Source: an uncultured Chryseobacterium sp.
Lineage (GTDB): Bacteria; Bacteroidota; Bacteroidia; Palsa-965
Reading direction: 5' to 3'
DNA length: 60,654 nucleotides
NCBI GenBank assembly: GCA_964447465.1
Contig: CAYUTR010000001.1
Coordinates: 1-60,654, forward strand
Shown: one piece after another, positions 30,801 through 52,158 of the stretch
Layout: every line of letters begins with the position of its first letter
Numbering within the stretch: the first letter of the stretch is position 1
The notes under the pieces: model-generated
What the model was told of the DNA's origin: nothing
Seen by the model: the letters and a program-made list of their open reading frames with translations, nothing else
The model's database searches: none
Program-made: the position numbers and the translations under genes

Positions 30801-31877
30801 ATGAAGGAATTAATCACAGACATTCATAAGACACTGGAGGATTACCAGGAGGGCACAGGGCACGAGATCACGCCAGAGAGAATTGAGAAGTGGATCAGTC
30901 AATTTGATGAGGACGATCAGGAATTTATACTTCAAGAACTTTCTCCAATTCTAAAGGACCGGTACGTGTCTAAGAAAAGTATCAAGGTGTTTCTTAGAGC
31001 AGTTATTGTGAAGCTCCAAAAGAATTACGAATACAAAACACCGCAGAAGTTTTTGAAGGATACTGTTTTTCTTGATCTCCAGGATACCGGTAAGAGTCAA
31101 ACAGTAATGCTCAAACTCCTCGATGAGATTTTGCAAGCTGAATTTGATCTTAAACTTGAAGATTGCGGTAGCGTGAATCAAAAGTATCACATCTATATGG
31201 ATGATATTCTTTGCACCGGGAATACATTCTTTTATGATATAAAAAAATGGGCCGGCAAAGGTGAAGGTTCAAATGAAGAGAAGGTGCGAAAGGGAGAAAT
31301 TGAATTGATTATTTGTTACGTGTTTATCCACACGACTAATTTTCACAAGGTCAATAAAAGATTTAAAAGAGACATATCATCTGGCTTTGCCTCAAAGTAT
31401 TCTTTTTGGAGGTTGAAGGAAATTGACAATGGCAATTCAACAAGTTCAGCTTACGAAACTTTAATGCCTATTGAAGACGATCAATCTGACGAGGTGGTTG
31501 CTTATCAAGAGCAAATCACCACAGAGGTGGACAAATACACAAAGAAAAGCGATTATGAAGTTGATGATGAATTCTACCGGGCCGGTTCACGACCGAAGGA
31601 AGAAAAGTTCTTTTCCAGTCCTGACAATCGGATACGCTTTGAAAATATACTTTTGAATAAGGGCATAGAGATTCTTTCTAAGGCGAGTAGTCAAAAACCT
31701 AATATCCGTGCGTTGGGCTACGAATTACCTTCACATAAAAATTTTGGATTCGGTACTCTTTGTTTTACGTGGCGCAATGTTCCTAATAATACTCCACTTG
31801 TATTCTGGTATGCAGGTGGTGAATTCTTTCCGTTGTTTGAAAAGCGCAGGGCAATACCTACATTTAGATTTGCATGA
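30801..31877 (+). CDS. phosphoribosyltransferase (PRTase)-like domain protein
   Basis: KYHIYMDDILCTGNTFFYD fits the type I PRTase PRPP-binding loop (hydrophobic strand-DD-hydrophobic-x-TG-x-T). About 130 aa precede it and about 210 aa follow it, neither recognised. Stop overlaps the next start (ATGA). Confidence 0.45.
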   Translation: MKELITDIHKTLEDYQEGTGHEITPERIEKWISQFDEDDQEFILQELSPILKDRYVSKKSIKVFLRAVIVKLQKNYEYKTPQKFLKDTVFLDLQDTGKSQTVMLKLLDEILQAEFDLKLEDCGSVNQKYHIYMDDILCTGNTFFYDIKKWAGKGEGSNEEKVRKGEIELIICYVFIHTTNFHKVNKRFKRDISSGFASKYSFWRLKEIDNGNSTSSAYETLMPIEDDQSDEVVAYQEQITTEVDKYTKKSDYEVDDEFYRAGSRPKEEKFFSSPDNRIRFENILLNKGIEILSKASSQKPNIRALGYELPSHKNFGFGTLCFTWRNVPNNTPLVFWYAGGEFFPLFEKRRAIPTFRFA

Positions 31878-32593
31878 AAGGCCAAACCAACAAGAACGAG
31901 GAGAGAATCTACACCTACTCCTCGTCCTGTACATTTAGAAAGACCAAAGAAAATTTTGGCGGACTATCGAATATGGCAAGTGGCTTTCCGCTTGAGATCA
32001 ATGGCATCCATATTTATTCCTCTGAGGCCTTATATCAAGCGTGTCGATTTCCACACTTGCCTGAAGTACAAAAAAACATACTGGAGCAGAAAAGTCCAAT
32101 GACCGCAAAAATGGTTAGCAAGCCATTTCGGGAAGAATCCCGAAAAGATTGGATGCAGATTAGAATAAAAGTGATGCGATGGTGTTTGAAAGTAAAATTG
32201 GCTCAACACTTTGATTCCTTCGGCAGACTTATCGAAACGACAAACTCAAAGGACATTGTAGAGGAATCATCGAAAGATCCATTTTGGGGAGCTATTCGGA
32301 TTAATGAAAACGAGTTGAAAGGTGTAAATGCTTTAGGGCGCTTGTTGATGGAGCTGAGAAATGACTACAATTCGATTAAGAGATTTGAATTGCTCATCGT
32401 AAATCCTCCAGCGATTCCCAGGTTTAATCTGATGGGAAAAAAAATAAAGCGAATTGATGAAAGAAAGAAATTTCTCAAGGATATGAAACAAAAAATTGGC
32501 TTAGAGAAAAATAAAAATTCAACATCCATAAAAGTGCAAGGTGGGAAGTCTATTCAGGAGCGGGAGAAAAGCTCAGAACTCTTACTCTTTTAG
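31874..32593 (+). CDS. NADAR (YbiA/DUF1768) family protein
   Basis: FGGLSNMASGFPLEINGIHIYSSEALYQACRF, W..IRIKVMRWCLKVKLAQH, IVEESSKDPFWG and GVNALGRLLMELR follow the NADAR consensus blocks in order. K-rich C-terminal tail. Confidence 0.75.
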   Translation: MKGQTNKNEERIYTYSSSCTFRKTKENFGGLSNMASGFPLEINGIHIYSSEALYQACRFPHLPEVQKNILEQKSPMTAKMVSKPFREESRKDWMQIRIKVMRWCLKVKLAQHFDSFGRLIETTNSKDIVEESSKDPFWGAIRINENELKGVNALGRLLMELRNDYNSIKRFELLIVNPPAIPRFNLMGKKIKRIDERKKFLKDMKQKIGLEKNKNSTSIKVQGGKSIQEREKSSELLLF

Positions 32594-34646: not shown

Positions 34647-36212
34647 TTATTCTCTCGGATCAGCAAATCGTACCAGTTCGCCAGTATATCCCTTGAATCG
34701 GCCTTTTCCGAATGCAGCTCCAAATTCAGGGAATTCGACAATGTGTGCTGCATCATGCACGTACTCATTCGCTCCCCGGTGCTGCCCATCCTTCGTAGCA
34801 TGAAGGATCGCAAACAAAGTCGTGTCAGGGCCGAGTCGTTTTTGCAAGGCTACCAACTGCTTCGGATTAAGTCCGAGTCGGCTTACGCTGTCCAGAAATA
34901 CAAATTTATAGTCGCGAAGATCGCCTGGATTAGCAGGTAAGTCGTCGTCAACGTACAGGTTTGGATTTGCCGCCTGCGTCTGTTCAAACTTGTCCTGGAA
35001 TGTACCTGAGAGTTCCTCTTCCTTTTGAATGAATAGCACCGGTCCGTGATGAGTTGAAAGGTATCCGGCAAAGTCAACCAGCGTCGTTGTTTTACCGAGT
35101 TTTTCTTTGGAGAAAACAATCGTATGTTTTCCAGGTTCAATATGTCCGAAGACCTTTACCCAAGGCTCGGCGATTGTATAACATGGAAACTTCTGTTTCA
35201 TAAATTCCGTGCTCGGTATCGGCCCTTTGGATTTCCGCTGAACGTTTTCTTCGTCGTGTGAAGCATTCACTTCCTTATCATAGGTTTCAGGGTACTCAAT
35301 GCCGTTCAGTTCCTCCGGTTCCTTTTCGCAACCACAACCGAGAATGCCACTCAGTTCGGCAGGTAAAAGCGGTAATAGAGCTTTTTCATTTTTCTTTTCG
35401 TCGTACTTCTTCAGCACTTTCATGGCTTCGATAATCTGGCTGAAGTACCTGTCATCCTCCGGGATGTCTCCCTTTTCAATTGCGTTAAACATTCCGTTGT
35501 AAAGTCTCCTGACTTTTTCCACCGTGGTAGATTTTTCTGCTTGACCTGCGTATTGTGACAAGAGTTGAACTGAACGCATTTTGTGCTCATCCTGGATTAA
35601 AGCCTCAATAGCTTTTCTTTCGCCGGCAGAAATATGTACCATCGCCATCGCACCTTTCGTTGTGTTGACCAGCTTTACAATGTTGTCGCGCATCTTTTCT
35701 ATATGCGCGGAATATTTGGAAGCCTTGCGCAGAACGCGGGCGTTGATCTGTCTTGCAAGTTTCCTGGCAAAAGATATTACGCGACTCGTTGGAACTTCCT
35801 TCTTTGAAAGATTGAGATACTGACCAAGCAGTACAATATGCGGATCAAGTGTTTCAACCGCCTTGCCAGATTTGTGCTTTGGCAGACTGACAGAACGCCT
35901 AACCACCTGCCGGGACTGAGGTTCTTCGTCCGGAGTTTTTTGCTTTGATGTTACAGGACCGTGTGATTTTGTTTCTGCCTTTTTGGGTGGGGAACTCTTT
36001 TCACTACCCTTTGTCTCCATCATTTCATCGAGAAGGGCAAATTGCTTAACCATCGCCGACCTGATCGTTTCGTTGCGATCATACAGCTTCCAGTTACTTC
36101 CGCTTTCCGTAGCGTTGCGGATGTAATCATGCGCCTTCTGCATCTTGTCTGAAAGGTTCTTAGCACCAATCTCACGGATGCGCTCAAAATAATTTTCTTT
36201 TGATGTTTTCAT
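34647..36212 (-). CDS. protein with C-terminal RadA/Sak4-like RecA-fold ATPase domain
   Basis: Walker A-like FSKEKLGKTT, Walker B YKFVFLDS, then LFAILHATKDGQHRGANEYVHDAAHIVEF...KGRFKGYTGE, which parallels RadA GHVTKEGxIAGPRxLEHMVDxVLxFEG...KNRFG. The ~340-aa N-terminus is unrecognised. Confidence 0.5.
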   Translation of the reverse strand: MKTSKENYFERIREIGAKNLSDKMQKAHDYIRNATESGSNWKLYDRNETIRSAMVKQFALLDEMMETKGSEKSSPPKKAETKSHGPVTSKQKTPDEEPQSRQVVRRSVSLPKHKSGKAVETLDPHIVLLGQYLNLSKKEVPTSRVISFARKLARQINARVLRKASKYSAHIEKMRDNIVKLVNTTKGAMAMVHISAGERKAIEALIQDEHKMRSVQLLSQYAGQAEKSTTVEKVRRLYNGMFNAIEKGDIPEDDRYFSQIIEAMKVLKKYDEKKNEKALLPLLPAELSGILGCGCEKEPEELNGIEYPETYDKEVNASHDEENVQRKSKGPIPSTEFMKQKFPCYTIAEPWVKVFGHIEPGKHTIVFSKEKLGKTTTLVDFAGYLSTHHGPVLFIQKEEELSGTFQDKFEQTQAANPNLYVDDDLPANPGDLRDYKFVFLDSVSRLGLNPKQLVALQKRLGPDTTLFAILHATKDGQHRGANEYVHDAAHIVEFPEFGAAFGKGRFKGYTGELVRFADPRE

Positions 36213-36229
36213 TTTAACCTCCTTTTGGG

Positions 36230-39200
36230 TTATTCTTCATCCAGTTCTAGCATAAGCAAAATTGCCTCCGCTTCCAGTTCCAATTCTCTTTCGAGCAGCG
36301 TTTCATCTTCTACCACTTCGGGCAGCATTTCAAGGTCAGGGAAACTTTCCTGTTCCTGTTTGTCTGTGAACTCCTTGTAAATCTTATCAAACTGCAATGG
36401 AGTGACCGCGACAGAAGTGCCTAAATCGCTCTCCAAAATTTCCAGCACTTCTTTAAGTTTAGTTGAATCGAAATAGGCAACCATCTTATCGCTTTGCTTG
36501 CTGAAGTTGTTATCGTCAATGAGCTTCAATAGGTTTTCATTCAGAAATATTTCACCTCCCTTGCTCTTTGTTCCTGAAACAACTACCATGAAACGTCCGT
36601 CACGTCGGAACAACGAAAGATGTTTTCCGATCACCACATGACCTCCTTCTACTAATGATTGTAAAATGGAATATGCTTTTGTTGCAGGAACAGCTACACC
36701 TTTTTCTGCGTCTTCATCCGGAGTCCAGTATTCAGGCATAAGGATTCCTTTTGCAACAGATCCGTCTTTGGTAGTGTAGTTGATGAGTTTGCCCCGGTAG
36801 CGACCAAGGGCCTGAAGAATATTTCCAGTAATAATGTACCTGCTTGCCCGGTCTGATTGGCGCTTTTGTGTTGTCTCTGACCAAATATCAGCGACCTGTT
36901 CAAAACCTCGCTGTGGTATATCAAAGCTCTCACCCTTTATACGCTGAATTGTCTCAGCCTTACTTGCAGGAATAACCAGGTATCGCAACCCGCTCGCAAT
37001 CGCAAAACGAAGTTTGATAGCACTTGGCGTAAAAGGATTTTTTTGATTTCGGTCAATTCCGAATCCAATGAAGACCGCTAGTATCTTTATCTGCCCTTCG
37101 TCCAGCGTCCTTGCAGGATAGTACAACAAGCGACCAACGTAGAAAAACGCAAGCGTTGATTTGGCAAAGTCGTTCCTACGTTCATAGTTGTATTGGGCTT
37201 TTTCTTCGCGGGATTTACGCTCGTCTTTGATAACTGCTTCCGCCTTATCTAATGCTCTTTCATACACTTCCCATCCATGCTTTTCAAGCATCTTCTTTAA
37301 TCGTGCCGAAGTTTTGAGTTCGTCAATTGAACGTGTGTATTGCTCCTTAGCCTGGAGCAGTTCATCATCAAGCATTTTCTGGCTTGCTGTTTTGAATTCA
37401 TCAAGGAGCATTCTGCTCTGTTCGGTAGCGGACAGTCCATCAAGTGACTGTCGTAGCATTACTCCCAATTCGTCAGCCTTCATCGGCTTACGCAATACAT
37501 TCACTTCGACAGTTTCCAAAACGCTGTCTTTTCCAAAGGAACTTCTTCCACCTCGACCCATTATTAAAACCTTGCGTTGTTTGGTTTCAGCATCGAGCTT
37601 CATTTCCTCAACTTCAAGATCGTATTCGCCGGTTTGCTTCATGTATTCAACATGGTCATTGTACCTCCGAACGACCTCATCATAAAAGTCCTGTTGCTCC
37701 TTTGAAGAAAGAACAGCTACACGACCGGAAACCATGAACGCTGCGTCATCTTTGCCGCGCTTCAGTTCCTTCGGTTCCTTTCCTTCCTTCTCTTTTTCTT
37801 TAAGTCCTAGAGGGTCTTGCAGAGCATCATTTATTTCAGGGTGATCTACCATGTATTCTGTCACGACTAAATCACCATACTTGTTCAGAAAATCAGGCAC
37901 GTCGAGAATCCTCGTACTCTGTTTTTGATTCGATGTTGTGTTCGCGTCCAACGATTTTAACTTTCGTTGAAGCATCATCATCAAGCGTTTTTCCGCAGGA
38001 ATTGCAGACGAAACATAATCGTAGATAGGTTTATATACCTGACCGGTGCGATTGACCCTGCCGCGCTTCTGTACCTCTGTACTAATATCAAGTTCTGGCT
38101 GCAGCACGATCATTACACGTTGCTTCACCTCCTCAAAAGGAACTTTGTCTGTTACGATTGCATGTGCTGATGCGCCTGTTGAACCAGATTGATTGATAAG
38201 CAAGACATCAATTTCATTGTTGTTGAATTTTCGGAAAGCCTCATTGGTAAGAATTTTTTTACGCGGATGGATGCGCCCCATGAGTTTGGTTCGCTTACCA
38301 AATGCTTCTTCCAGGTCAATGCCTGGGAATTCATCTTCAGCGGTGCTTGAAAACTCAATACCGCTTTCTGTTTTCACCTCGTTGAGTTCAACCGAAATTC
38401 TTCGCCCGGTAACTTCAGCAACAGAATATCCGGCCTCACGGATTTTTTTGACAATCACATCAATTGGCGAAATGCTGATCCCGGTTGAAACCGTTTCAAT
38501 CTTCTCGATGATATTCCAATATGCAAGTTCCGCCTGTGGCCCGAGTTCTTTGGCCGTAAAGGTTCTTTGTTCAACTCTTCCATTGGGGAGCGTGAGGGTA
38601 TATCGCATGATACTTGATAAACCGCGTTTAAGCACCTCCGAAAAATCAGCGGCGATAACGTCACCAGCTTTAACAGGCTCACCGTCTTCATTCGTCATGG
38701 ACTCAATAAATGCAGCCATTGTGCTGGAAAAAGCGATCACCGGTTTTTTCCCTTCCTTCAGGCGCATGATTGCACGTTCTGCCACCGCGTCAGCCTTAAT
38801 ACTGAAAAGCATTTGATTGATAACATTAAATACCCTTGAGAAGTAAGGGTCATTGCTCACCCCTGCCTGCTTCGTTCCTTTCCGTAACTCAACATTCACG
38901 TTGGCTTCGGCAAGTTCATCATCAAGACGCTTCACTTCCTTGCTTACAAAATCCTCCTGGAAACGGATGGTGTCACGAAGTACTTGGGTAACAGTATCAG
39001 CGATTGCCCGGTGTTCGTCCTCCATCTCGTCGAGGGTAATGTAATTGACTTCTACACCTTCATAAGAACGTTCACGGCGCACCATTTGACCTTCCTTGAC
39101 CAACTCGCTGGAAATAACTTCCTGCAACGGCACACCACCGGCCCTGATTGCCCAAACAAGCTGTTCACGATTCATGTTGCTTTCGCTCATCAGGGTTTTC

Positions 39201-42200
39201 CTTGCATACAATGGGAGGTTTGCAGGTTTCTTTGCGAACGTCGCTGATAGATACAGAACTCCTTTACAATGTGAGATAAGACGCTGAAAGAATGCTCCTG
39301 TATTCCCTTCGCCACTCGCATTGTGTGCCTCATCCATGATGAGAATATTCTTATTAGCAACAGCGTTGAGAAAACGTTGCTTTGCGGAAAGTTCGTTAGA
39401 GCTGAACTGGCTATATGTTGCAAGCAGAAAATTGAATTGCGCGGGAATCTCCGCATCATCAAATATTTCAGCTTGTTCCTTTTGCGAAAGTGCCTCGTAC
39501 ATCGTCTCACCGTATTCATCAAGAATATCAGTTTTGTCGTCCTTAGCATTTACAATAAATGGACGAAGGCTTCCCGATCCGATTGCCTTTAGATCGCGAT
39601 ACAGGTCAGAGAACAGGTTTGGTTTTTCCGTGAGGAAAATTGGCTGATAACCTCGTTTAACCCCATACCGAATTATTGCTGCCGCCACGCGACCTTTACC
39701 AATTCCGGTCTGATCGCCTTCTATTGCTCCCTGTTCTCGGGCTTCGATATTGTAGATGGCAATTGCTACCGCGTCGATCTGTTCGGCTGCCAATGCAGCG
39801 CACAATTCTTTTTTTGATCCGTAGCCTAATCGGTTGCGAACAAATTCATCAATGTCACCACCTATTGCATCATTGACTTTTTGTAATGCCTGGTGCGTTT
39901 CAAAACTCATTGCATCCGGTACAACAGTATCCAGCACAACACAACCCTGGGAAGTAGGAACATAAGTAGCTCCAAGACCGTTCAGGTTTTCCGGTTGGTC
40001 TAGTGACTGAATGCTTTGTACAACAACGTTGTTTCCGAAATTGTCCTTGAAGGAATGTCTTAACTCACTGTCGGCCCAACGTTGAGCAAGATAGTCCGAA
40101 TGAAAAGCCTTGAACGCGACGAATTGAGAATAAGGAGGCGTATTCAGCTTAAAAATGATCTTGTAATTTTGAGCGCGTTCTTTCCTGTGTAGAAAGTCGT
40201 GAACCGCAATTGCTTCGTTAAAGTGTTTTTTGGGTGTAGATCGTTTGTGATCGTCCGCAGGCTTTTCTTCCCAAGTGGATTTTTGTTCTTGCTTTGGCTT
40301 AGTATCATCATCGTCCAAAAGATTAAGGATGCTGCTTGCATCATCTTCAAAATCCTTTTCACTTTTATCGACTTTTATATTTCGGAATAAATCAGGGTAG
40401 CTGATTCGTACATCGTATGGCAATTCTATCCTTTCATCAATCGCCATTTTTACAAAGTTCCTGTGCTGTTCCGTGAATTCTTTTTTTGTTGGAGGGACAC
40501 TATCTTCTGAGTGCAATGTTGTTTGCCAACGGATCCATTCAGTCAGGCTTAAATAGTGTGCGGGAACCATAAAGTTGCGATGCCTCATTACCCGCTTGTA
40601 CAGCTCGTCGAAATCTCTGATCGGTGTATCGAGCTTTTCAGAAAAGGCAGGAGCGGTTGCATCAAATATTCTTTGCCGTTTGGAAATAAGAATCAGTCTT
40701 GCATCAACGCCACTGCCATGACTGGAGTACAATTGTTTGTCAATCGGTATAATATCAATAACCCGGTAGTGCTTATACAGGTAATCAAGGAAGGTGCGAT
40801 TTGCTCCTTTGCTGATACGCCCTTTGCCATCGTAGGAAGTATGTCCGCCGAGTATAATTGCTGCGTTGCCTAAGTCGTGCATACATTCAAGCGCATTCAG
40901 CACCATGATGTGCTCAAGTGATTTTATTTCATAGTCCCCATAGCGAACTGCGTGATCCATTTTGCCGAGCGGAGGATTTGCAAGTACGCAAGCGAACTTT
41001 TTATCAAGGCCAATAAAGGGTTTTGTTGCGTCCTGGCTTGTTACACGGAAATAACCTTGTGTGCGTAGATGCTGAACCCTGAGTTTGTCAACTTCGTTGA
41101 CGATTGTTTTATCAGGAGAGGAAGCAATTGTAAGAAGTCCATTGCCAGCGCAAGGCTCAAAAATGCTTCCGTACATATCAGCTCCTGTAATGATCCCCGC
41201 AAGAAAGGAGATGGGAGCCGGTGTACTCTGCTGCCCTAATAACTTGCTTTGACCTGTGGGATGAAACAAGTTGAGCTGCGAACTGTACAACGATATTAAT
41301 TCATCGTAACGGTTCCGATAGGTCTTCTCCTGGTGCGCTAATTCTCTCGCACAGATTGTAACTGCCAACTCGGTGAGTTCATTGATTAAGTTCTTGTCGG
41401 CGATCTCAAAATCCTCCGCAACGTTTTCGTAATACAAACGACTGCGAACATTTCTCTTTTCAAGATCATTAATTACAAATTCAACGAACTCCCGATGCTC
41501 CTGCTTAAGTTTTTCAAGCGAAAGTCCTTCAAGTGCATCATTATCTTCACCGGTTTCCATGCCGTTTAATGTTTTTGATTGGGTTGGCGCAAATCGCAAA
41601 AGGATTCTGAATATTTCTTCGGCGACTTGCGGGACAATTGCATTTCCTAATCCTTTAAGTCTGTCCAGCCTACGGGGTATCCCATCAGCCACTCTACCCA
41701 CTCCGGGTTCAGTTGGCCATTTGGACGTTTCTGTTTTATAGCTTCCCTTCGCGCCATTGCGGAGAGCGATTTGCTTTGTTGCGAATTTCCCTTTAGCCGG
41801 TACTTGTGTTCGGATGCGGTAGGTGTCGGATAAAACTGAACGAACAGCATAAGGTTTTGCTGTATTTTTTTTCCAGTCCTTCGATGAAAAAGAGTCTGGT
41901 TCCATCTCCTTGGTGTTTCTCCATCCTTGTCCACCATGTCTCTTGCGTTTCTCTCGAACTGCGTTGCCGTTGGTGTAGGCAAGAATCCAAACCCTGTCTC
42001 TCCGATGGGGTGCATCCTTGGCGCAAGCTGGTATAACAAACGTTTCTGTGGTGTAACCTTCATTCTCCAATTGAGAAAGCACTTGGTCGAGTGCCAGGTT
42101 GATGATTCCAGAAACATTTTCACCAATGATGAAACGGGGCCGTACTTCTCTGATAACTCTAAGCATCTCAGGCCAGAGGAAACGGAGGTCTTTTTTCCCT

Positions 42201-42445
42201 TGTTTTTTTCCGGCGACCGAAAAAGGTTGGCAAGGGAAACCGCCTGTGAGGATGTCAATTTTACCCCTGAAAGGTCTTCCCTTAAAGTCTCGTATGTCTT
42301 CAAATCGTTTCGCATCTGGAAAGTTTTTTTCAAGCACTTCTAAACACCATTTATCATTCTCCACCTGGAAAACAGTTTCAATCCCAACGTTCTTCGCGGC
42401 TAGATCGAATCCACCAATACCGGCAAACAGGCTTCCGAGCTTCAT
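36230..42445 (-). CDS. giant fusion: DNA C5-cytosine methyltransferase + N6-adenine methyltransferase + strawberry-notch-like SF2 helicase + ~600-aa unknown C-terminus
   Basis: C5-MTase motifs FAGIGGFD (I), GGFPCQPFS (IV), GENV (VI), RRDRVWI (VIII), GNAIVPQV (X). N6-MTase FEPCAGNG and ANPPLG (residues ~430-495). Helicase GDQTGIGKGRVAAAII (Walker A), IMDEAHNASG (DEAH), LYLSATFA, LLINQSGSTGASAHA, EVQKRGRVNRTGQ (motif VI), resembling strawberry notch. Confidence 0.8.
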   Translation of the reverse strand: MKLGSLFAGIGGFDLAAKNVGIETVFQVENDKWCLEVLEKNFPDAKRFEDIRDFKGRPFRGKIDILTGGFPCQPFSVAGKKQGKKDLRFLWPEMLRVIREVRPRFIIGENVSGIINLALDQVLSQLENEGYTTETFVIPACAKDAPHRRDRVWILAYTNGNAVREKRKRHGGQGWRNTKEMEPDSFSSKDWKKNTAKPYAVRSVLSDTYRIRTQVPAKGKFATKQIALRNGAKGSYKTETSKWPTEPGVGRVADGIPRRLDRLKGLGNAIVPQVAEEIFRILLRFAPTQSKTLNGMETGEDNDALEGLSLEKLKQEHREFVEFVINDLEKRNVRSRLYYENVAEDFEIADKNLINELTELAVTICARELAHQEKTYRNRYDELISLYSSQLNLFHPTGQSKLLGQQSTPAPISFLAGIITGADMYGSIFEPCAGNGLLTIASSPDKTIVNEVDKLRVQHLRTQGYFRVTSQDATKPFIGLDKKFACVLANPPLGKMDHAVRYGDYEIKSLEHIMVLNALECMHDLGNAAIILGGHTSYDGKGRISKGANRTFLDYLYKHYRVIDIIPIDKQLYSSHGSGVDARLILISKRQRIFDATAPAFSEKLDTPIRDFDELYKRVMRHRNFMVPAHYLSLTEWIRWQTTLHSEDSVPPTKKEFTEQHRNFVKMAIDERIELPYDVRISYPDLFRNIKVDKSEKDFEDDASSILNLLDDDDTKPKQEQKSTWEEKPADDHKRSTPKKHFNEAIAVHDFLHRKERAQNYKIIFKLNTPPYSQFVAFKAFHSDYLAQRWADSELRHSFKDNFGNNVVVQSIQSLDQPENLNGLGATYVPTSQGCVVLDTVVPDAMSFETHQALQKVNDAIGGDIDEFVRNRLGYGSKKELCAALAAEQIDAVAIAIYNIEAREQGAIEGDQTGIGKGRVAAAIIRYGVKRGYQPIFLTEKPNLFSDLYRDLKAIGSGSLRPFIVNAKDDKTDILDEYGETMYEALSQKEQAEIFDDAEIPAQFNFLLATYSQFSSNELSAKQRFLNAVANKNILIMDEAHNASGEGNTGAFFQRLISHCKGVLYLSATFAKKPANLPLYARKTLMSESNMNREQLVWAIRAGGVPLQEVISSELVKEGQMVRRERSYEGVEVNYITLDEMEDEHRAIADTVTQVLRDTIRFQEDFVSKEVKRLDDELAEANVNVELRKGTKQAGVSNDPYFSRVFNVINQMLFSIKADAVAERAIMRLKEGKKPVIAFSSTMAAFIESMTNEDGEPVKAGDVIAADFSEVLKRGLSSIMRYTLTLPNGRVEQRTFTAKELGPQAELAYWNIIEKIETVSTGISISPIDVIVKKIREAGYSVAEVTGRRISVELNEVKTESGIEFSSTAEDEFPGIDLEEAFGKRTKLMGRIHPRKKILTNEAFRKFNNNEIDVLLINQSGSTGASAHAIVTDKVPFEEVKQRVMIVLQPELDISTEVQKRGRVNRTGQVYKPIYDYVSSAIPAEKRLMMMLQRKLKSLDANTTSNQKQSTRILDVPDFLNKYGDLVVTEYMVDHPEINDALQDPLGLKEKEKEGKEPKELKRGKDDAAFMVSGRVAVLSSKEQQDFYDEVVRRYNDHVEYMKQTGEYDLEVEEMKLDAETKQRKVLIMGRGGRSSFGKDSVLETVEVNVLRKPMKADELGVMLRQSLDGLSATEQSRMLLDEFKTASQKMLDDELLQAKEQYTRSIDELKTSARLKKMLEKHGWEVYERALDKAEAVIKDERKSREEKAQYNYERRNDFAKSTLAFFYVGRLLYYPARTLDEGQIKILAVFIGFGIDRNQKNPFTPSAIKLRFAIASGLRYLVIPASKAETIQRIKGESFDIPQRGFEQVADIWSETTQKRQSDRASRYIITGNILQALGRYRGKLINYTTKDGSVAKGILMPEYWTPDEDAEKGVAVPATKAYSILQSLVEGGHVVIGKHLSLFRRDGRFMVVVSGTKSKGGEIFLNENLLKLIDDNNFSKQSDKMVAYFDSTKLKEVLEILESDLGTSVAVTPLQFDKIYKEFTDKQEQESFPDLEMLPEVVEDETLLERELELEAEAILLMLELDEE

Positions 42446-42450
42446 GGCTA

Positions 42451-42648
42451 TTATTTATTTTCACGCAACACATTTTCCAAACTATCTGCGCGGTGATGGT
42501 AGTACAACATTTTTTCCACGCACTCCACGCATTCAGGACTCCGATATCCGCCTGATATAATCATGTTCAGCACGAACAGGATACTGCCGATGAAACTCAT
42601 TACCGTTATCCAAAACGAAATCTTAGCACGTTTCTCCTGGGTGAACAT
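42451..42648 (-). CDS. small single-pass membrane protein
   Basis: 65 aa with TM ISFWITVMSFIGSILFVLNMII. Tightly packed between neighbours. Confidence 0.45.
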   Translation of the reverse strand: MFTQEKRAKISFWITVMSFIGSILFVLNMIISGGYRSPECVECVEKMLYYHHRADSLENVLRENK

Positions 42649-42652
42649 GACT

Positions 42653-42973
42653 TCAGGTGTTGTGTGGTTTCTTCAGGTTGTGGGATTTTCTTTTCGGGTC
42701 TTTCAGCAAGCGGAAAATCAGATACGTCCCTGCGTAGCCAGTAAAGAAGGCTTCGAGAAGTCGGTACTTCGGAAAGTATTCGTGAGTCAGGGTAACAGCA
42801 AGTGTCAGGAAGAACAGCGACCAGATCACACCGATCAGGTTTTCGTTGATCCACCTTCTCATGGAAAATTCATTTACACCGATGAGGCGCACAAGTAACA
42901 GACAGATAATACCGATGAAAGCTACAGCCCAATGCAACAGGCCACATGATTCAAGAAAAGTGAGAGTTTTCAT
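42653..42973 (-). CDS. three-TM small membrane protein (holin-like by position)
   Basis: 106 aa, three hydrophobic helices and a basic C-terminus (KDPKRKSHNLKKPHNT), immediately downstream of the lysozyme-like gene. Confidence 0.4.
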   Translation of the reverse strand: MKTLTFLESCGLLHWAVAFIGIICLLLVRLIGVNEFSMRRWINENLIGVIWSLFFLTLAVTLTHEYFPKYRLLEAFFTGYAGTYLIFRLLKDPKRKSHNLKKPHNT

Positions 42974-42993
42974 AGTTAAAATGTTTTTGGGTT

Positions 42994-43719
42994 TTAGGCG
43001 ACTCGCCTTTTGTTTTGATTTTCAGAAATGAAATACACAGCGAGGGTAGTGGCAGCTATTGCACCTCCTGCCAGACTGAGGAGCAGGAATTTTCTTGCGG
43101 CACGTTCAACTATTCGCAAGGTGGCATAGGTGAATTCATTCAGCTCATTAAGGCGATTAAGCCATCCTCGGATGTAAGTTGGATTGTTAAGCGAGATGTA
43201 GAATTGGCGATAGTGCTCGATCAGTTTCTCCTGCACCCGCTTTTCTCCGATTGCGGTCTTGGTGATCTTGTGAAACAGCTCACGGATTTTACCGGCGTTC
43301 TCCAGACTGTAACTGCTTGTGGTGATCGGTAAATTGCTACCGTAGTTTGCGTTCAGAAATTTTGCCAGTTGCCGGTGAGCACCACCGATTCCCGATCCCC
43401 ATGCGAATGAAACGATGATGTCGGCGATGGATTGAGACCGGTAACTATCAAGCAGAAACTTGTCCCAAAATCCGTGCTTGAATATTTTGAGCCATATATG
43501 ATCCGGCATCGAAAAGAAATTTGCACAAGACGGATTGTAACCAAGTTTTGCGTTCATCTCAAACGTTCTGTAAATGATCCCTTTGTTGGTGTGCCAACCG
43601 ACCTGACCATTATAGACACAGGGAGCAGGATAAGAAGCGGGGCCGATGTCACGCGGATCATTGCTCAATCCACCTTCCCACTTCTTAATGAACTCAATTT
43701 GATTTCTGTGATCGGCCAT
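42994..43719 (-). CDS. GH108-like lysozyme (N-acetylmuramidase) with C-terminal membrane anchor
   Basis: IEFIKKWEGGLSNDPRD, HTNKGI and SIADIIVSFAWGSGIGGAHRQL follow the glycoside hydrolase 108 pattern (EGG...D..G.TK.GI...D.AVN.G). C-terminal TM LLLSLAGGAIAATTLAVYFI. Confidence 0.55.
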   Translation of the reverse strand: MADHRNQIEFIKKWEGGLSNDPRDIGPASYPAPCVYNGQVGWHTNKGIIYRTFEMNAKLGYNPSCANFFSMPDHIWLKIFKHGFWDKFLLDSYRSQSIADIIVSFAWGSGIGGAHRQLAKFLNANYGSNLPITTSSYSLENAGKIRELFHKITKTAIGEKRVQEKLIEHYRQFYISLNNPTYIRGWLNRLNELNEFTYATLRIVERAARKFLLLSLAGGAIAATTLAVYFISENQNKRRVA

Positions 43720-43731
43720 TGCTCGCAGTGA

Positions 43732-44790
43732 TTATTTGTCAAACACAATTGCACTTGTCCGCACGTACATGGTGCGATCATCCAGCGTCCGAAAACGCGT
43801 GTATCCATTGCCTGAAGACAACCACCGGCCTAAGAGCGTGAACGATGGAATTTCCACGCTGATATTAAATCCGTCGGTGATAATTGTTTTTGTGATGGTG
43901 CGGATGTTCTTAGTTACAGCACCCAAACCTGAAAGTGCCCATGAAGAATCGTAATTATTCGGATCGCTGTTTTTGACAGTTTCCTTCAATCCCATGCGAC
44001 GGAACTGCTCACGCAACTTCGCTTTATTTGCAGGAGAATTTTTGAACGCATCAAGCAACCCGGTTACGAGTGTGTAGCGACGAATACCGGAATAAGGACG
44101 TAATTGGAAACCTTCGCTGGCGAAACCGTAATCAACCGTGTTATTAACCTTTTGTAGTAGCGCAACCGTTGAGTTTATGTCTGATGCCTTTGCAGTATCA
44201 AAAATCTGCCACCCAATAATGATGTAAGGATTCGTTACCCATGAAGGAATGACAGATTTGATAACGCTGGTGACAAGTCCGGATGATGCAGTTGTTTTCG
44301 GAGGAAGGGAAGTCTTTGCTCCGCCGAAGTTGCCCGTAACGTAATCAGTGAATGTGGTGTTGTCAATTACCGTTTTCAGTCCCTTGCTTGTAAGTGCGGT
44401 CGTTAGCTCCGATCCCCAGATACCATCCGCGCCCCATTTTGGCAAGATGGATGCACCGAATTTTTGCATCAGCGCATTCTGCAAATTCTTCACTTGCTCG
44501 CCGCGACTTCCTTTCTGAATTGGGAAATTAGTGCTGCCGCTGCCAGAGGAGTATCCAGAAGATGGTGGTGCTGAATAAGTCGGTGCAGGTAATTCAGGAA
44601 CAGATCGTGAAGCACTGTCGAAGGCATTTGAATCTCCTTCGTCGCTCTTACCGAATTTTCCACCTTCGTTTCCGTTACTGTTTCTCCTGAATAGCCAAAT
44701 GCCACCGCCGACCAATCCAATACCTGTTGCGGCTATGCTGAGAAGCACCCAACCACGTTTATACCAGGGCTTTTTTTCTTCGTTTGCCAT
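43732..44790 (-). CDS. membrane-anchored peptidoglycan-binding domain protein
   Basis: N-terminal TM WVLLSIAATGIGLVGGGIWLF. IQKGSRGEQVKNLQNALMQKFG...WGADGIWGSELTTAL is PG_binding_1-like. Confidence 0.55.
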   Translation of the reverse strand: MANEEKKPWYKRGWVLLSIAATGIGLVGGGIWLFRRNSNGNEGGKFGKSDEGDSNAFDSASRSVPELPAPTYSAPPSSGYSSGSGSTNFPIQKGSRGEQVKNLQNALMQKFGASILPKWGADGIWGSELTTALTSKGLKTVIDNTTFTDYVTGNFGGAKTSLPPKTTASSGLVTSVIKSVIPSWVTNPYIIIGWQIFDTAKASDINSTVALLQKVNNTVDYGFASEGFQLRPYSGIRRYTLVTGLLDAFKNSPANKAKLREQFRRMGLKETVKNSDPNNYDSSWALSGLGAVTKNIRTITKTIITDGFNISVEIPSFTLLGRWLSSGNGYTRFRTLDDRTMYVRTSAIVFDK

Positions 44791-44801
44791 GTCTGTAATT
44801 T

Positions 44802-45566
44802 TTATGCTGTGATTCCTTTTTTCGATAATTCTTCTCTGAAGTCATAATCACCTGAGCTAACGTCGTCGTCGAGGTCATCAAGGATGTCCGCAGAGTATTT
44901 TGATTCGTAGGCTTGGCTTACATCGTCCCAGGATTTCTGATCCGGGATTTCACGCACTACCTGTTTTATTGCTTCCAAATCGGTTCCCCACATTAATCCC
45001 CACGTTTGAAAATTCACCGCTGCATTTATGCGCTCGGCCCATGCGTAGGGATCGTAGATCGGCTGGCTGTTCTTTCCTGCTTTCTCCGGTTTGATGCGGT
45101 AGATAGCAACCATCTCCTGCATCTCAGTGGATTTCAAATGCTCGTTCAAATCCGCATATAAATCCACTCCGTACTGATTGTGATAATTGGTCACAACCTT
45201 CCTGAACATTGCCTTGTCAGGGATGTCCACGAACGCTGTGCGGATCTGTTGCGTGTTCGTCCCAAGCCAGTTGTCATTGTCAATTCCCATCTTGATTTGC
45301 TGCGCGTAGTATGCTGGTTCACCGGGTTCAAGTGATCCCTTCGCTGCGTGTCTGGAAATAACTTTAGTAACAACCTTGTAACCGAAGTAGCCCACAGTAA
45401 CAACGACCACCGTTCCAACCAGACCCCAAACCACATAAGTTTTGAAGCTGTCAGAGTCGCTGGAACCGGGTTGAACGATATAAGTAGGCTCTCCCGCTTG
45501 ATGTGAAGGAGCGTTCTGCTTATGGCGTTGCCCCTGCCTTGTTGTGCTGTGGGCTACCGTTGTCAT
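44802..45566 (-). CDS. membrane-anchored protein with two annexin-like repeats
   Basis: TM YVVWGLVGTVVVVTVGYFGY. Repeats LGTNTQQIRTAFVDIPDKAMFRKVVTNYHNQYGVDLYADLNEHLKSTE and WGTDLEAIKQVVREIPDQKSWDDVSQAYESKYSADILDDLDDDVSSGDY fit the annexin repeat (GTDE..L..i...R......i...Y...yg..L..dl....SG). Confidence 0.5.
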   Translation of the reverse strand: MTTVAHSTTRQGQRHKQNAPSHQAGEPTYIVQPGSSDSDSFKTYVVWGLVGTVVVVTVGYFGYKVVTKVISRHAAKGSLEPGEPAYYAQQIKMGIDNDNWLGTNTQQIRTAFVDIPDKAMFRKVVTNYHNQYGVDLYADLNEHLKSTEMQEMVAIYRIKPEKAGKNSQPIYDPYAWAERINAAVNFQTWGLMWGTDLEAIKQVVREIPDQKSWDDVSQAYESKYSADILDDLDDDVSSGDYDFREELSKKGITA

Positions 45567-45748
45567 TACAAGCGCATGTATTTGCGTGCTGTGGCGAGTA
45601 CCGAAGGTTCGTAGAGCACGATTTGGCGTAAGCGATCAATCTCTTTTGCTGAGAGCTTTTCTGCGAGAACTTTCAGACCGTTTTCTTTCATCTCGACTTC
45701 TGCATCTGTTGGCGCAGTAATTGAGAAATCAGTTTTTTTAGTTGCCAT
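45566..45748 (-). CDS. small hypothetical protein
   Basis: ORF 45566..45790 trimmed to ATG 45748 (MATKKTDFSI). Overlaps the upstream gene by 11 nt and the downstream start by 1 nt. Confidence 0.4.
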   Translation of the reverse strand: MATKKTDFSITAPTDAEVEMKENGLKVLAEKLSAKEIDRLRQIVLYEPSVLATARKYMRL

Positions 45749-46559
45749 CGTCTTGTGATTTTTCAAATGCGGACATATATGTTGATTCAATCAATTCAGG
45801 ATTCTCTGTAAGCACGGTGAGAAGTTGACTGACAAGACCACGTTGTACCTTGTCGAATCCTTTGAATAGCCCGGTGAAGAATTTGTATTCTTCATATTCG
45901 CGCTCCGAAATGGCTATTTGAGTTTCATCATTACTACTCGCCGAGTTTGCTTCTGCTTTGCGCTCTTCTTGTTGTTCATTTTCTGCTGTGCCTGATAACG
46001 GGCCGTCTTTGGGCTTGGGGCCTAAGAAGCGATCAAGGGCTTCGCGTCCCAATTCAAGCAACACATTCGTTTGCCCGTTTTCGTCTTGCAGCTTTATCAG
46101 TTCCCCATTTTGCTTTTCCAATTCGTCATTTCTTTTAAGGAGGATGTCGAGTTGTTGCCGCAAGATTTGGTTGTCGCGCTGCACCTTGTCGTGATTATGC
46201 TTTAAGGTGACTTGCTCAACTTGCTTTTGTACCCTGTCTTCAAAAGATACTGTGGGGCCTTCTTCAATACCATGAAAAGTTTGACCGTTCAATTGTTTTG
46301 GACCGTCGAAATAAAAACAGGTATTGTTGCGGTTGCGTGTATGGCCGATATATTCAGAAATGGTAATCCACTTTGTTGTCGGCCCAATCAGATCGAAAAT
46401 GCTCTGAAACAAAGTCGCGTCGGTGGTCTTTGGAATTATCTCCAGATCGTCGATAGTGACGGCGTAGGAGATGGGTTCTCCAATGCGAGAGTGGTTCTCC
46501 AATCGAATGCGGATCGCCTCGACTTTTGCGTTGTCGTATGGAATCTTTTGGAAGCTCAT
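45738..46559 (-). CDS. coiled-coil hypothetical protein
   Basis: 273 aa with a central heptad-rich segment (QILRQQLDILLKRNDELEKQNGELIKLQDE) and an acidic region. 4-nt overlap with the upstream gene. Confidence 0.5.
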   Translation of the reverse strand: MSFQKIPYDNAKVEAIRIRLENHSRIGEPISYAVTIDDLEIIPKTTDATLFQSIFDLIGPTTKWITISEYIGHTRNRNNTCFYFDGPKQLNGQTFHGIEEGPTVSFEDRVQKQVEQVTLKHNHDKVQRDNQILRQQLDILLKRNDELEKQNGELIKLQDENGQTNVLLELGREALDRFLGPKPKDGPLSGTAENEQQEERKAEANSASSNDETQIAISEREYEEYKFFTGLFKGFDKVQRGLVSQLLTVLTENPELIESTYMSAFEKSQDDGN

Positions 46560-46888
46560 CTTTTCTGTTTTTTATGCTGTGGAATAACCTGGATAAACAG
46601 CACACTTGCCGTTGCTCCTGTGTCGTTCGATACCCGAATGATTCCGCTATGCTCGTGTTGCTGAATATTTATCACTGCGTCTCCCAGGTTAAAAACCCCT
46701 CGCTCTGATTCCACTTTTATATCCAAAACTTCTGGTTCAATGAACAGCATGAGTTGGTTGTATGCTTTGAAAGTTGTTGCGGCTTTATCAGCAAGTCTTA
46801 TCTGCCGATACCTTACCACATAGCGTTCTCCGAAACCTAACTCCCGCATCCGACGCGGGATATAATCCAAAGCGAAGGCGAGGTTCAT
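46556..46888 (-). CDS. small beta-rich hypothetical protein
   Basis: 110 aa, with 4-nt overlaps on both sides. Confidence 0.45.
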   Translation of the reverse strand: MNLAFALDYIPRRMRELGFGERYVVRYRQIRLADKAATTFKAYNQLMLFIEPEVLDIKVESERGVFNLGDAVINIQQHEHSGIIRVSNDTGATASVLFIQVIPQHKKQKR

Positions 46889-47328
46889 GGCTGTTGCATT
46901 TTTAGGCGGAGATAAATCCGCACGGTGTAGTCAATGTTATCGGTCAGTAGTACACCTACACGATCTTCGTAGTAACCATCTATCAATGTGCTATCAACGG
47001 GTTGGTAAGTGTCAAGCATCTCATAGTTTGTTCTCCACCACCATTGTTGCGTGTCTATATATTTTTCACCGACTTTTTCCCATGCTTCAACTTTGAATGA
47101 AGCGTAAAGTGTGTGAGCAAAAAATCTCTCACCTTTATCGGAAACAAAAAGGCGTAAGTAACCCGCCTCTCGTTGAATCTTAGGTTGACCACCGACATTG
47201 ATAAAGTGTTTGTCGCACGTCACCGCAATCCCGGTAATGCTTTCTGCATTTTCAGGCAGTATAATCTGAAAGAGTTTCTTTTGAAATCTCTCCTTGATCG
47301 ACAACGTATGGACTATGAACTTTTCCAT
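46885..47328 (-). CDS. small beta-rich hypothetical protein (paralogue-like of 47332..47742)
   Basis: ENAESITGIAVTCDKH and YTVRIYLRL echo KNADKIIGVAVSSNRD and MFLYVYSTL of the neighbouring gene. Confidence 0.45.
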   Translation of the reverse strand: MEKFIVHTLSIKERFQKKLFQIILPENAESITGIAVTCDKHFINVGGQPKIQREAGYLRLFVSDKGERFFAHTLYASFKVEAWEKVGEKYIDTQQWWWRTNYEMLDTYQPVDSTLIDGYYEDRVGVLLTDNIDYTVRIYLRLKMQQP

Positions 47329-47331
47329 GAA

Positions 47332-47742
47332 TTATTCAGTTGGTTGCACGGCGAGCGTGCTATACACGTAGAGAAACATTTTGTGCGGGAGAAATTCTAC
47401 CACATCGGCGTTTCCTGAATCGGTGTAGATCATCTCTACTTTACGATTTCCCGGTTCAATTCGCCCTAATCTGTAGTAGCGTTGATTGGGCGGAACGTTA
47501 AGACCGCTCATCAGGTACTTGCTTTCGTAGTTCTCTGGGAAGAATTCTTCGTCGTTAATTTTGATAGCCTGGCTTCCCCGGTAGTATGCGATGTCGTCAC
47601 GATTGGAGCTGACGGCCACACCAATTATTTTGTCGGCGTTTTTGTCCACTTCAAATGATCCTTTATGGACTTCTCCTTCGACAGTTATGTCAAGTGAGAA
47701 AACTTCTTTGATTATTTTATTCTGCTTAGCCATTTTATTCAA
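47332..47742 (-). CDS. small beta-rich hypothetical protein
   Basis: 136 aa. See the paralogue note on 46885..47328. Lies downstream of a strong hairpin. Confidence 0.45.
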   Translation of the reverse strand: MNKMAKQNKIIKEVFSLDITVEGEVHKGSFEVDKNADKIIGVAVSSNRDDIAYYRGSQAIKINDEEFFPENYESKYLMSGLNVPPNQRYYRLGRIEPGNRKVEMIYTDSGNADVVEFLPHKMFLYVYSTLAVQPTE

Positions 47743-47763
47743 GCCTTAGAAAGTTTAAGGAAG

Positions 47764-47796
47764 GGCCGTCCCGTCATTGCGGGACGGCCTTTTTTT
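47764..47796. terminator. strong GC hairpin between 47808..48557 and 47332..47742
   Basis: GGCCGTCCCG-TCATTG-CGGGACGGCC (10-bp perfect stem). The T-tract (TTTTTTT) is on the plus-strand side, so it is a canonical terminator only for antisense (plus) transcription. On the minus strand it could act as an attenuator or stabiliser. Confidence 0.5.
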
Positions 47797-47807
47797 CCTT
47801 CTGCCAG

Positions 47808-48557: not shown

Positions 48558-48618
48558 CCGGACCTCGCTTTTTGGGTGCGGGCCTTATTGGATGCTCAAC
48601 TGTTTTTTCTGTCAGTTA

Positions 48619-49236: not shown

Positions 49237-49271
49237 TTTCGTTTCTTTTATGTTTTTCTTGGGGTTGGAGC

Positions 49272-51065: not shown

Positions 51066-51069
51066 GACT

Positions 51070-51531: not shown

Positions 51532-51800
51532 GGCTTTACGTTTTCTAATTTGTCGCAGCGTGAGGAGAGTCTCCTAACCTGTCGTTGTAAATAACCAACC
51601 CGATGGTCAATGGTATGATCAAAATTTTGGGAGAGGGAAACGTGCGTGTTGTGTTCTGAATAAAGTGTATTAACACGCTCTACCATCTGTTTGAAATCCT
51701 TATGCAAGTCCTTCAGGAAGTACCCGATAATCAAAAACATCACGCTCAAAAAGGAAAGCAGAACGCTGTTTACGATGAGAAGAATTTGAACCTTGTCCAT
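51528..51800 (-). CDS. small single-pass membrane protein
   Basis: ORF 51528..51869 trimmed to ATG 51800 (MDKVQILLIVNSVLLSFLSVMFLIIGYF). Confidence 0.4.
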   Translation of the reverse strand: MDKVQILLIVNSVLLSFLSVMFLIIGYFLKDLHKDFKQMVERVNTLYSEHNTHVSLSQNFDHTIDHRVGYLQRQVRRLSSRCDKLENVKP

Positions 51801-51940
51801 AATTGAGTATTTTATTTGTAGGCCTTGATGCAGATTGCTATTACTCTTATTACGCCCTATTAAATGCACCGTTATCGGTATAGTAGAGGACTGTTTTGAA
51901 ATGATGGATTATGTAGAGGAATGTTGAATTGCATAGCAAA

Positions 51941-52147: not shown

Positions 52148-52158
52148 AGTCAGTTCGG

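Follow-up and report, generated by a model that had tools for sequence, protein, structure and literature searches.

Why would a mobile element of Bacteroidota keep two DNA methylases and a helicase-like motor in one gene, and what might the resulting protein do for the DNA that encodes it? This question is raised by a 60,654-nucleotide stretch of DNA from an uncultured Chryseobacterium sp. (contig CAYUTR010000001.1 of assembly GCA_964447465.1, hereafter "the window"), in which an integrative mobile element carries, on the minus strand, a gene for a methylase-helicase "polyvalent" protein designated P0001. Genes for polyvalent proteins that join a methylase to a motor belong to the backbone of many plasmids, phages and integrative elements. 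The locus brings three questions about them together: whether tethered methylases become processive on incoming DNA through a translocase, whether a nested gene supplies a subunit for the C5-cytosine methylase of this 230-kDa protein, and what role its long tail plays. The reading that we prefer, with a probability of roughly 60%, is that the tethered methylases, carried by the motor, would mark the DNA of the element and shield it from restriction, with a RadA-like ATPase as a partner on the same DNA.

The signature gene and its methylase-motor core

The gene, its domains and its downstream partner are the following.

36230-42445, minus strand: polyvalent methylase-methylase-helicase protein P0001, a stop-free open reading frame (ORF) of 2071 codons
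41591-42445, minus strand: C5-cytosine methylase alpha chain, residues 1-285 (Pfam PF00145, phrog_363 and M.HhaI match)
41647-42333, minus strand: nested putative beta ORF, P0123, in the +1 frame, 228 codons as listed, inside alpha codons 38-266
41246-41488, minus strand: four-helix domain before the adenine methylase, residues 320-400 (AlphaFold model, LPD36 position)
40586-41245, minus strand: N6-adenine methylase domain, residues 401-620 (Foldseek, motifs, selection)
39977-40585, minus strand: variable linker, residues 621-823 (model confidence profile, secondary structure, selection)
37607-39976, minus strand: strawberry-notch SWI2/SNF2-like ATPase, residues 824-1613 (Pfam, invariant motifs, selection)
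36326-37606, minus strand: conserved folded tail, residues 1614-2040 (AlphaFold, homologue coverage, selection)
36233-36325, minus strand: tethered C-terminal acidic-leucine helix, ELELEAEAILLMLELDEE (AlphaFold confidence)
34647-36212, minus strand: partner gene P0002, 521 residues, with a RadA/Sms-like RecA-fold ATPase at residues ~334-516

An earlier note on this DNA, made from the sequence alone, had described P0001 as a single ORF and as the largest gene of the element; the ORF list bears out both statements, and a whole-genome check found one copy of the gene in the 5.08-Mb assembly. More than 1000 proteins matched P0001 in a protein database search. In Bacteroidota assemblies, taken at one genome per species, relatives were found at no fewer than 544 loci by an alignment-based contig scan, a single-protein query of the same contigs having given just 2 loci. 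Eighty loci out of these at least 544 relatives were sampled for neighbourhood and integrity. Disruption of the gene in related elements had been named in the earlier note as an outcome that would speak against it; the relatives are intact (at least 1500 residues) at 79 of the 80 loci, and the remaining locus is cut by a contig end. P0001 is a polyvalent protein in that it combines at least three enzyme domains, belongs to an element with an integrase and an attachment (att) repeat, and has relatives with variable N-terminal domains. It is the signature gene of an uncharacterised and very widespread family of Bacteroidota elements, which occurs in no fewer than 544 species genomes.

The core shared by the family begins at about residue 310. 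The N-terminal slot before it is variable and may be empty or occupied by a RadC/JAB, MutS-I, N6/N4 methylase or C5 methylase domain. The combination of two methylases, which had been singled out as worth characterising, is present in P0001, yet it recurs: a C5 domain is found in 7 of the 120 best homologues, and other relatives bear an additional N6/N4 methylase. The C5 domains are of two unrelated kinds, one being the two-chain type found in P0001 (relatives P0003-P0005) and the other a canonical single chain with RLQGFP in frame (P0031, P0037, P0039 and P0073), and the dual-methylase state has therefore been gained more than once.

Domain searches and structure prediction supported all three enzyme assignments of the earlier note. 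Selection was assessed by the ratio of nonsynonymous to synonymous substitution rates (dN/dS), computed between the window DNA and the DNA of its 92% twin (locus L010). Purifying selection acts on all domains of P0001 (dN/dS 0.016-0.14), with the exception of frame-0 codons 158-262. Motif invariance was scored in a family alignment of 50 sequences, and motif IV of the adenine methylase and the terminal helix were counted over 121 relatives.

The motor is the most readily recognised part of the core. Pfam places AAA_34 at residues 885-1147 (9e-19) and Helicase_C_4 at residues 1394-1613 (7.7e-19), and the first ATPase lobe is also matched by ResIII and DEAD. The Walker A motif (GDQTGIGKGR, with K917), the DEAH box at 1038-1041 (D1038/E1039/H1041) and motif VI (QKRGRVNRTGQ, 1459-1469; Q1459-R1466), from which a strawberry-notch helicase had been proposed, all lie in invariant columns of the alignment, and dN/dS across the motor is 0.016-0.031.

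The adenine methylase was recognised through its structure. Residues 296-830 matched no Pfam model, even at E values up to 5, and the family profile gave weak matches to PDB sequences (a type I methylase and METTL5, E ~0.1). An AlphaFold model of these residues, built on 50 homologues with a mean predicted local distance difference test (pLDDT) score of 84, was closest by Foldseek to the methylase subunits StySJI M (2okc_B, 6.9e-9), Vibrio vulnificus HsdM and EcoKI M (2ar0, 6e-8), with further matches to BsaXI, PacII, TaqI (1aqj, 1.2e-5) and CamA. As judged from this model, residues 401-620 have an EcoKI/TaqI-like (gamma-class) N6-adenine methylase fold, in agreement with the module that had been proposed from its S-adenosylmethionine-binding and NPPL motifs. 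The motifs are the TP motif at 407-409 (S407-T408-P409), motif I, FEPCAGNG, at 429-436 and motif IV, NPPL, at 490-493; S407-T408-P409 and E430/A433-G436 of FEPxAGNG are invariant across the alignment, in which the family form of motif IV is NPPFG. The domain is under strong purifying selection (dN/dS 0.034).

Motif IV of P0001 departs from its family. The window and its 92% twin carry NPPL (AAT CCT CCG CTC; 40967-40978, minus strand), compared with NPPF in 119 of the 121 relatives, and the CTC codon is one transition away from TTC. NPPL lacks the aromatic residue of the NPP(Y/F/W) signature of gamma-class N6 methylases. In enzymes of this class, the target adenine is stacked against the aromatic residue of motif IV. 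One reading considered was that the adenine methylase had decayed once a C5 domain was gained; it was rejected on the basis of the dN/dS of 0.034 and the retention of NPPF in the C5-bearing relatives P0004 and P0005.

The adenine methylase is flanked by two further regions. The four-helix domain before it (helices H20-34, H41-50, H56-75 and H81-94, pLDDT >90 in the AlphaFold model) is conserved across the family and has no Pfam match. At the position of the GxGU signature of LPD36, a domain compared here by its description, the family consensus reads GITD and the window protein EIAD. The linker after the methylase contains helices, a disordered stretch of acidic and basic residues (~716-755) and a small alpha/beta domain (~741-814). 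It is confined to a subfamily (P0003-P0014, P0040 and P0122), and shorter relatives omit it, often with a ELEAEALALELELL helix in its place. No sign of a hidden second gene was found in this methylase-helicase linker, in which purifying selection acts on frame 0 (dN/dS 0.061). As a separate observation, residues 741-814 (approximately 39977-40225, minus strand) form a confidently folded beta-beta-alpha-beta domain, which occurs only in the subfamily of ~1750-2070 residues and occupies the site of the internal helix copy of shorter relatives.

The C-terminal region had been described as an unknown coiled-coil tail of about 600 residues. No known fold could be assigned to it, but the part past the Pfam strawberry-notch C domain measures ~460 residues (1614-2071) and is mostly folded, with a single helical hairpin and further domains in place of a plain coiled coil. 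Residues 1560-2071 were modelled by AlphaFold with a mean pLDDT of 81.9 as a long helical hairpin (~1673-1767) followed by beta-rich and alpha/beta domains, a low-confidence tether and a confident terminal helix. Searches with this fold returned nothing from PDB (best Foldseek E 0.037, template modelling score <0.2) or BFVD, and sequence searches returned nothing from Pfam or from PDB sequence profiles, and the idea that the tail is an HsdS-like specificity module or has any other known fold was dropped on these searches. It is conserved at more than 50% identity through the Bacteroidota family (dN/dS 0.064), and it is also covered by homologues on cyanobacterial and Xanthomonas plasmids, in IMG/VR viral contigs and in residues 2566-4146 of gp3 of Bacteroides phage BS-TP4. 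The tail is thus a conserved core part of a methylase-motor cassette of ~1650 residues that extends across phyla, and not a lineage-specific appendage.

An acidic-leucine helix of the type LELEAEALALELELL closes the protein in 113 of the 121 relatives; 91 of the 121 end in AA, and in 44 of them the methylase module closes with another, internal copy. P0001 ends in ELELEAEAILLMLELDEE (tether pLDDT 51-60, helix ~90) and has no internal copy, the small alpha/beta domain at ~741-814 standing in its place. Beyond the window (36233-36325, minus strand), the terminal helix was located in relatives P0003-P0122 and at positions 7980-12856 of locus L008. Plasmid pPP10 encodes methylase and motor in two genes, and both products close with a basic form of the helix. 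A role of the helix in docking, loading or turnover may be suggested. Its AA end also resembles the LAA end of the ssrA degron.

The C5 methylase region and the ORF nested in it

The C5 part of P0001 is unmistakable in its first half and irregular in its second. Pfam DNA_methylase (PF00145) matches residues 1-187 at 4.1e-47, the match ending at profile position ~178-180 of 324; NCBIfam concurs (TIGR00675, 1.3e-35), PHROGs phrog_363 spans residues 1-284 (1.3e-74), and M.HhaI matches residues 5-160 at 1.3e-19 in the PDB sequence search. Within residues 1-157, frame 0 encodes motifs I (LFAGIGG), IV (GFPCQPFS, with Cys72), VI (GENV) and VIII (HRRDRV), and motif X (LGNAIVPQV) returns in the same frame at residues ~258-274. 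Between motifs VIII and X, neither the Pfam match nor the reading of frame 0 revealed a target-recognition region or motif IX; residues ~158-255 are a K/R/S-rich, low-complexity filler that diverges strongly between the window and its twin.

Motif IX was found in the +1 frame, which reads ...GFGFLPTPTATQFERNARD...YPTPTASEHKYRL...LNPEWVEWLMGYPVGWTDLKD* and contains LPTPTA and YPTPTA repeats as well as the motif itself (LNPEWVEWLMGYPVGWT; EWLMGYP at 41674-41694). The complete set of C5 motifs that the earlier note ascribed to the ORF is therefore a property of the locus and not of the ORF. An ATG of this frame at 42313-42315 (minus strand, start 42315) would yield a beta chain of 222 residues. 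It arises from a GAT or AAT codon followed by G at a conserved alpha-chain site, (F/W)P(D/N)(A/V), and has been retained by six lineages, two of them GC-rich phages (the window, L010, L176, L093, L094 and L095). From its position and recurrence, it is a candidate for a conserved beta-chain start.

Selection changes frame within this region. In frame 0, codons 1-157 have a dN/dS of 0.10 and codons 158-262 of 1.16; in the +1 frame, the value is 0.87 for codons 38-150 and 0.17 for codons 158-262. The +1-frame protein is also encoded by the DNA of relatives P0003 and P0005 (the twin, L010, and a 50%-identical homologue, L176), with the ORF open in both, and by the annotated stand-alone methylase genes, unrelated ones, of Lacticaseibacillus phage R23.9, Mycobacterium phage ShroomBoi and a GC-rich podovirus, three phages from other phyla. 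Direct comparison of the sequences shows the frame-0 stretch EPGVGRVADGIP to be the codon shadow of NPEWVEWLMGYP in the +1 frame. When the +1-frame motif IX (LNPEWVEWLMGYPVGWT) is combined with the frame-0 motif X, the composite registers with LHPRECARVMGYP...GNSVV of M.HhaI, an alignment that is not significant by itself. In addition, the record of Paenibacillus phage Leyra annotates such an overlapping pair as two coding sequences.

On these grounds, the C5 module is predicted to be a two-chain enzyme of the M.EcoHK31I type, with its beta chain supplied by the nested ORF. A double programmed frameshift (0 to +1 to 0) that would yield one canonical chain was set aside in favour of separate translation, because frame 0 is open in all lineages, both frames read whole motifs at the junctions (RVWILAY and FLPTPTA), a two-chain enzyme is proven in the case of M.EcoHK31I and the phage Leyra genes are annotated as a pair. 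It is very unlikely, in our judgement, that the C5 domain is instead a decaying relic, with frame 0 alone translated and residues 1-285 serving at most to bind S-adenosylmethionine or DNA. Such decay would be compatible with the lack of motif IX and of a recognisable target-recognition domain in frame 0, and P0123 alone matched no Pfam or PADLOC model. The catalytic core, however, is under purifying selection, and the +1 frame is selected precisely where frame 0 is not. The nested ORF, moreover, is conserved without stops where the host protein has diverged by 50% and in distant phages, and its ATG persists in all six lineages. Routine annotation of the P0001 gene overlooks this predicted protein-coding gene inside it.

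Two further observations concern this region. The C5 core (42015-42445, minus strand) has a synonymous divergence (dS) of 0.22, compared with 0.5-1.2 in the remaining gene, and a nucleotide identity of 97%, compared with 87%, and the +1 frame remains open across it; the low dS fits either a dual-coding constraint, if an N-terminal stretch of the beta chain is encoded there, or the recent arrival of the segment by recombination. The host genome also contains another C5-methylase-like ORF (contig C3, 3441-3935, minus strand; L007), a 335-residue open frame that is 34% identical to residues 1-157 of P0001.

The element and the proposed role of the protein

The surroundings of the gene bear on what the protein could do, and comprise the following features.

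42451-52894, minus strand: upstream co-directional module of small, partly membrane-anchored proteins and peptidoglycan hydrolases (Pfam, synteny)
42994-43719: GH108 peptidoglycan hydrolase (Pfam/PHROGs)
53969-55327, minus strand: tyrosine integrase at the right end of the element (Pfam Phage_integrase, Arm-DNA-bind_5)
15289-15308 and 55385-55404: 20-nucleotide att-like direct repeat D6, the copies 40,096 bp apart
15333-15408: tRNA-Val, adjoining the left att-like repeat
30801-32593: PRTase-CE/NADAR validated defence cargo, about 3 kb from the P0001 gene

The ATPase gene reported 17 nucleotides downstream of P0001 is confirmed in its spacing (36212 against 36230) and in its class. P0002 matches phrog_6891 at 6.8e-15, and its family profile matches RadA 5lkm at 9.4e-8 (8rxc at ~1e-7) over RadA residues 46-264. 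The match is confined to the ATPase domain, and the N-terminal zinc finger and the C-terminal Lon-like domain of cellular RadA are absent; the N-terminal 330 residues of P0002 have no family match, and the protein ends at the ATPase domain. A relative of P0002 was present at 75 of the 80 sampled loci, in 74 of these directly downstream on the same strand, and one weak phage match was also recorded.

Both ATPase genes belong to one tight, co-directional and operon-like block of ~18 kb (34647-52894, minus strand), which also encodes small membrane proteins, an annexin-like protein and cell-wall hydrolases. Six upstream genes are kept at 54-56 of the 80 loci, among them the annexin-like membrane protein and a 249-residue protein conserved at 50% identity, for which neither a PDB sequence match nor a phage match was found. 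The module was conserved at all 80 of the sampled loci. Its gene order (window 34647-52894, minus strand; sampled loci L003-L005, L008, L010, L013-L092 and L176) recurs in hundreds of Bacteroidota genomes and on plasmid pPP10, which has Rep/ParAB and is typed as non-mobilizable. Against Pfam and PHROGs, the proteins of the block matched no hallmark family of conjugation or of tailed phages, with the exception of one weak PHROG tape-measure match (E 2.6e-4) of a 609-residue protein.

Some side observations may be recorded here. A partial tRNA copy (15188-15233; 46 nucleotides, 89% identical) lies near the left repeat, 145 nucleotides upstream of the intact tRNA-Val. In the two closest relatives, L010 (9125-9994) and L176 (9129-9995), the polyvalent gene is directly preceded on its upstream side by a PAPS_reduct-family gene and small ORFs; the window has two small ORFs only at this place (42451-42973) and no PAPS_reduct gene.

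In the scheme that we favour, the core is a cassette of ~1650 residues, held in common with conjugative plasmids and giant phage virion proteins and composed of the four-helix domain, the N6 methylase, the strawberry-notch translocase, the folded tail and the tethered terminal helix, and the variable N-terminal slot would be filled by the alpha chain of an M.EcoHK31I-type C5 methylase. The beta chain would be translated separately from the +1 ORF that lies within the gene's initial 0.8 kb. The ATPase would move the protein along the double-stranded DNA of the element while the tethered methylases mark that DNA, so that in a new host the marked DNA would be spared restriction. Because a free beta chain is needed, C5 activity would more probably occur in the cell that expresses the gene; the part made up of adenine methylase and motor may be active on entry or later, provided that the protein travels with the DNA. 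The RadA/Sms-like ATPase would be an obligate partner that probably handles the same DNA. Gene integrity, domain identities, selection in the two frames, conservation and synteny are established by the analysis. For methylation targets, motor-coupled methylation, anti-restriction and delivery, the scheme draws on the family literature together with the anatomy of the protein.

Several points weigh against this scheme. Translation of the beta chain is deduced from selection. The adenine methylase may be weak or altered, since NPPL has no aromatic residue, and no DNA-recognition domain was identified for it, the tail having no HsdS-like or other fold match. Delivery with the DNA is not directly supported, because none of the following families was detected by Pfam or PHROGs among the proteins of the block: VirB4, coupling protein, relaxase, terminase, portal and capsid. 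Furthermore, the portions consulted of the literature on these proteins contained no experimental test of a member of the strawberry-notch cassette.

It is also conceivable, though on balance unlikely, that P0001 and the RadA/Sms-like ATPase are above all a DNA-processing or establishment machinery, acting in replication, in circularisation or integration that depends on recombination, or as a transfer motor, to which methylation is secondary. No other nucleic-acid motors than those of the two ATPase genes can be recognised in the module; these are also its most conserved large genes, and they are almost invariably adjacent, in an element family in which Pfam and PHROGs reveal neither a replication initiator nor a relaxase nor a packaging ATPase that could be recognised. 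SMS/RadA domains have been suggested to help the circularisation or integration of incoming DNA, but the same source describes strawberry-notch/SWI2-SNF2 ATPases as double-strand translocases and not as replicative helicases (Iyer et al. 2017, PMC5512222, in the parts consulted). The cassette, moreover, also occurs in phages and plasmids that have replication and packaging genes of their own, and the strong conservation of the methylase catalytic motifs throughout the family argues that methylation is central.

A methylase is combined with an SNF2-like motor in DISARM, BREX and type I/III systems. This pairing makes it worth asking whether P0001 is a defence or exclusion device of such a kind, which marks self DNA and interferes with other invaders. 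The PADLOC models DruM and DrmMII do match the C5 core, and a validated defence cargo lies close by. The listed PADLOC matches, which are the best 25 of 55, however, all fall on the generic C5 core (residues 1-~208), which disfavours a known defence system; Pfam detected no nuclease or effector domain in P0001 or its partner, and the tail is without a known fold. In addition, P0001 is a fixed backbone gene of a structural or transfer-like operon and lies outside the variable cargo slot that holds the defence genes. We consequently regard a defence function as distinctly improbable.

A rather doubtful proposal, which concerns the vehicle more than the protein, is that the element represents an unrecognised Bacteroidota DNA vehicle, either a non-tailed membrane-containing virus or a non-type-IV transfer apparatus, in which the tethered terminal helix ELEAEALALELELL (usually ending in AA) would be a signal that loads the protein into the vehicle or docks its modules to one another. 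If this were so, C5 activity, with its alpha chain tethered to the motor and its beta chain free, would be confined to the donor cell and the adenine methylase-motor part would travel with the DNA.

Comparison with known systems

DarB of phage P1 is a protein of 2255 residues that is packaged in the head and defends phage DNA against restriction. The earlier note had placed P0001 with DarB among giant methylase-helicase proteins, which holds for class and architecture but not for sequence homology. The two are similar in size and in order (an N6-adenine methylase, then an SF2 ATPase), and the role proposed for P0001 is alike. BLASTP, however, found no significant similarity between them (best E 0.21), although the lone alignment falls in the register of the TP motif, motif I and motif IV. 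The helicase families also differ: DarB has SNF2-rel_dom and Helicase_C, a Pfam-detectable N6_Mtase/Eco57I methylase and no C5 domain, whereas P0001 has AAA_34 and Helicase_C_4, an adenine methylase undetected by Pfam, and a C5 domain.

The closest conceptual framework is the account of polyvalent proteins by Iyer, Burroughs, Anand, de Souza and Aravind (2017; PMC5512222), which, in the parts consulted, describes a methylase-helicase dyad prototyped by P1 DarB, proposes an anti-restriction role for it, gives a TP motif and NPP(Y/F) as the signature of its methylase and mentions strawberry-notch versions. The same parts report variable RadC and MutS-I domains, and SMS/RadA domains in polyvalent proteins of Bacteroidetes. 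P0001 shares with this dyad the order of a TP-motif EcoKI/TaqI-type methylase followed by a SWI2/SNF2-type ATPase in one mobile-element protein, and the RadC, MutS-I and additional methylase domains of its relatives, as well as its SMS/RadA neighbour, are as described there for Bacteroidetes. It differs in having NPPL and no evident GxGU, and in belonging to an element without recognisable conjugation or virion genes. A nested two-chain C5 methylase was not found in the consulted parts of that paper.

For the C5 module, the experimental precedent is M.EcoHK31I (Lee, Kam and Shaw 1995, described in PMC2836561, in the parts consulted), whose alpha chain contains motifs I-VIII as well as X and whose beta chain, the bearer of motif IX, comes from a different frame that lies entirely within the alpha gene, both chains being needed. 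The split at the P0001 locus is the same, with motifs I-VIII and X in the alpha chain and motif IX in a nested ORF of another frame. The alpha chain of M.EcoHK31I is stand-alone, whereas in P0001 it forms the N-terminal domain of a motor protein 2071 residues long, and the nested ORF at this locus also bears PTPTA repeats; the likeness to M.EcoHK31I is one of layout and not of compared sequences.

The cassette itself is shared more widely. Plasmid proteins annotated as "strawberry notch C-terminal domain-containing" in Acinetobacter, Xanthomonas and cyanobacteria are homologous to P0001 over residues ~320-2000, including the tail, at 28-44% identity, and differ from it in lacking a C5 domain. 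Persicobacter plasmid pPP10, likewise without a C5 domain, keeps the surrounding module, with methylase and motor as separate genes. The cassette was also recovered in 176 IMG/VR viral contigs. In Bacteroides phage BS-TP4, residues 353-2012 of P0001 align at 34% identity with gp3, a protein of 5391 residues whose gene adjoins the portal gene; in that tailed phage the cassette lies inside a much larger virion-type protein, whereas P0001 is stand-alone in an element without tailed-phage genes. Viewed against these systems, P0001 belongs to an already known kind, the polyvalent methylase-helicase proteins, of which a nested two-chain C5 methylase in the N-terminal slot, as read from the two frames, would be a variant.

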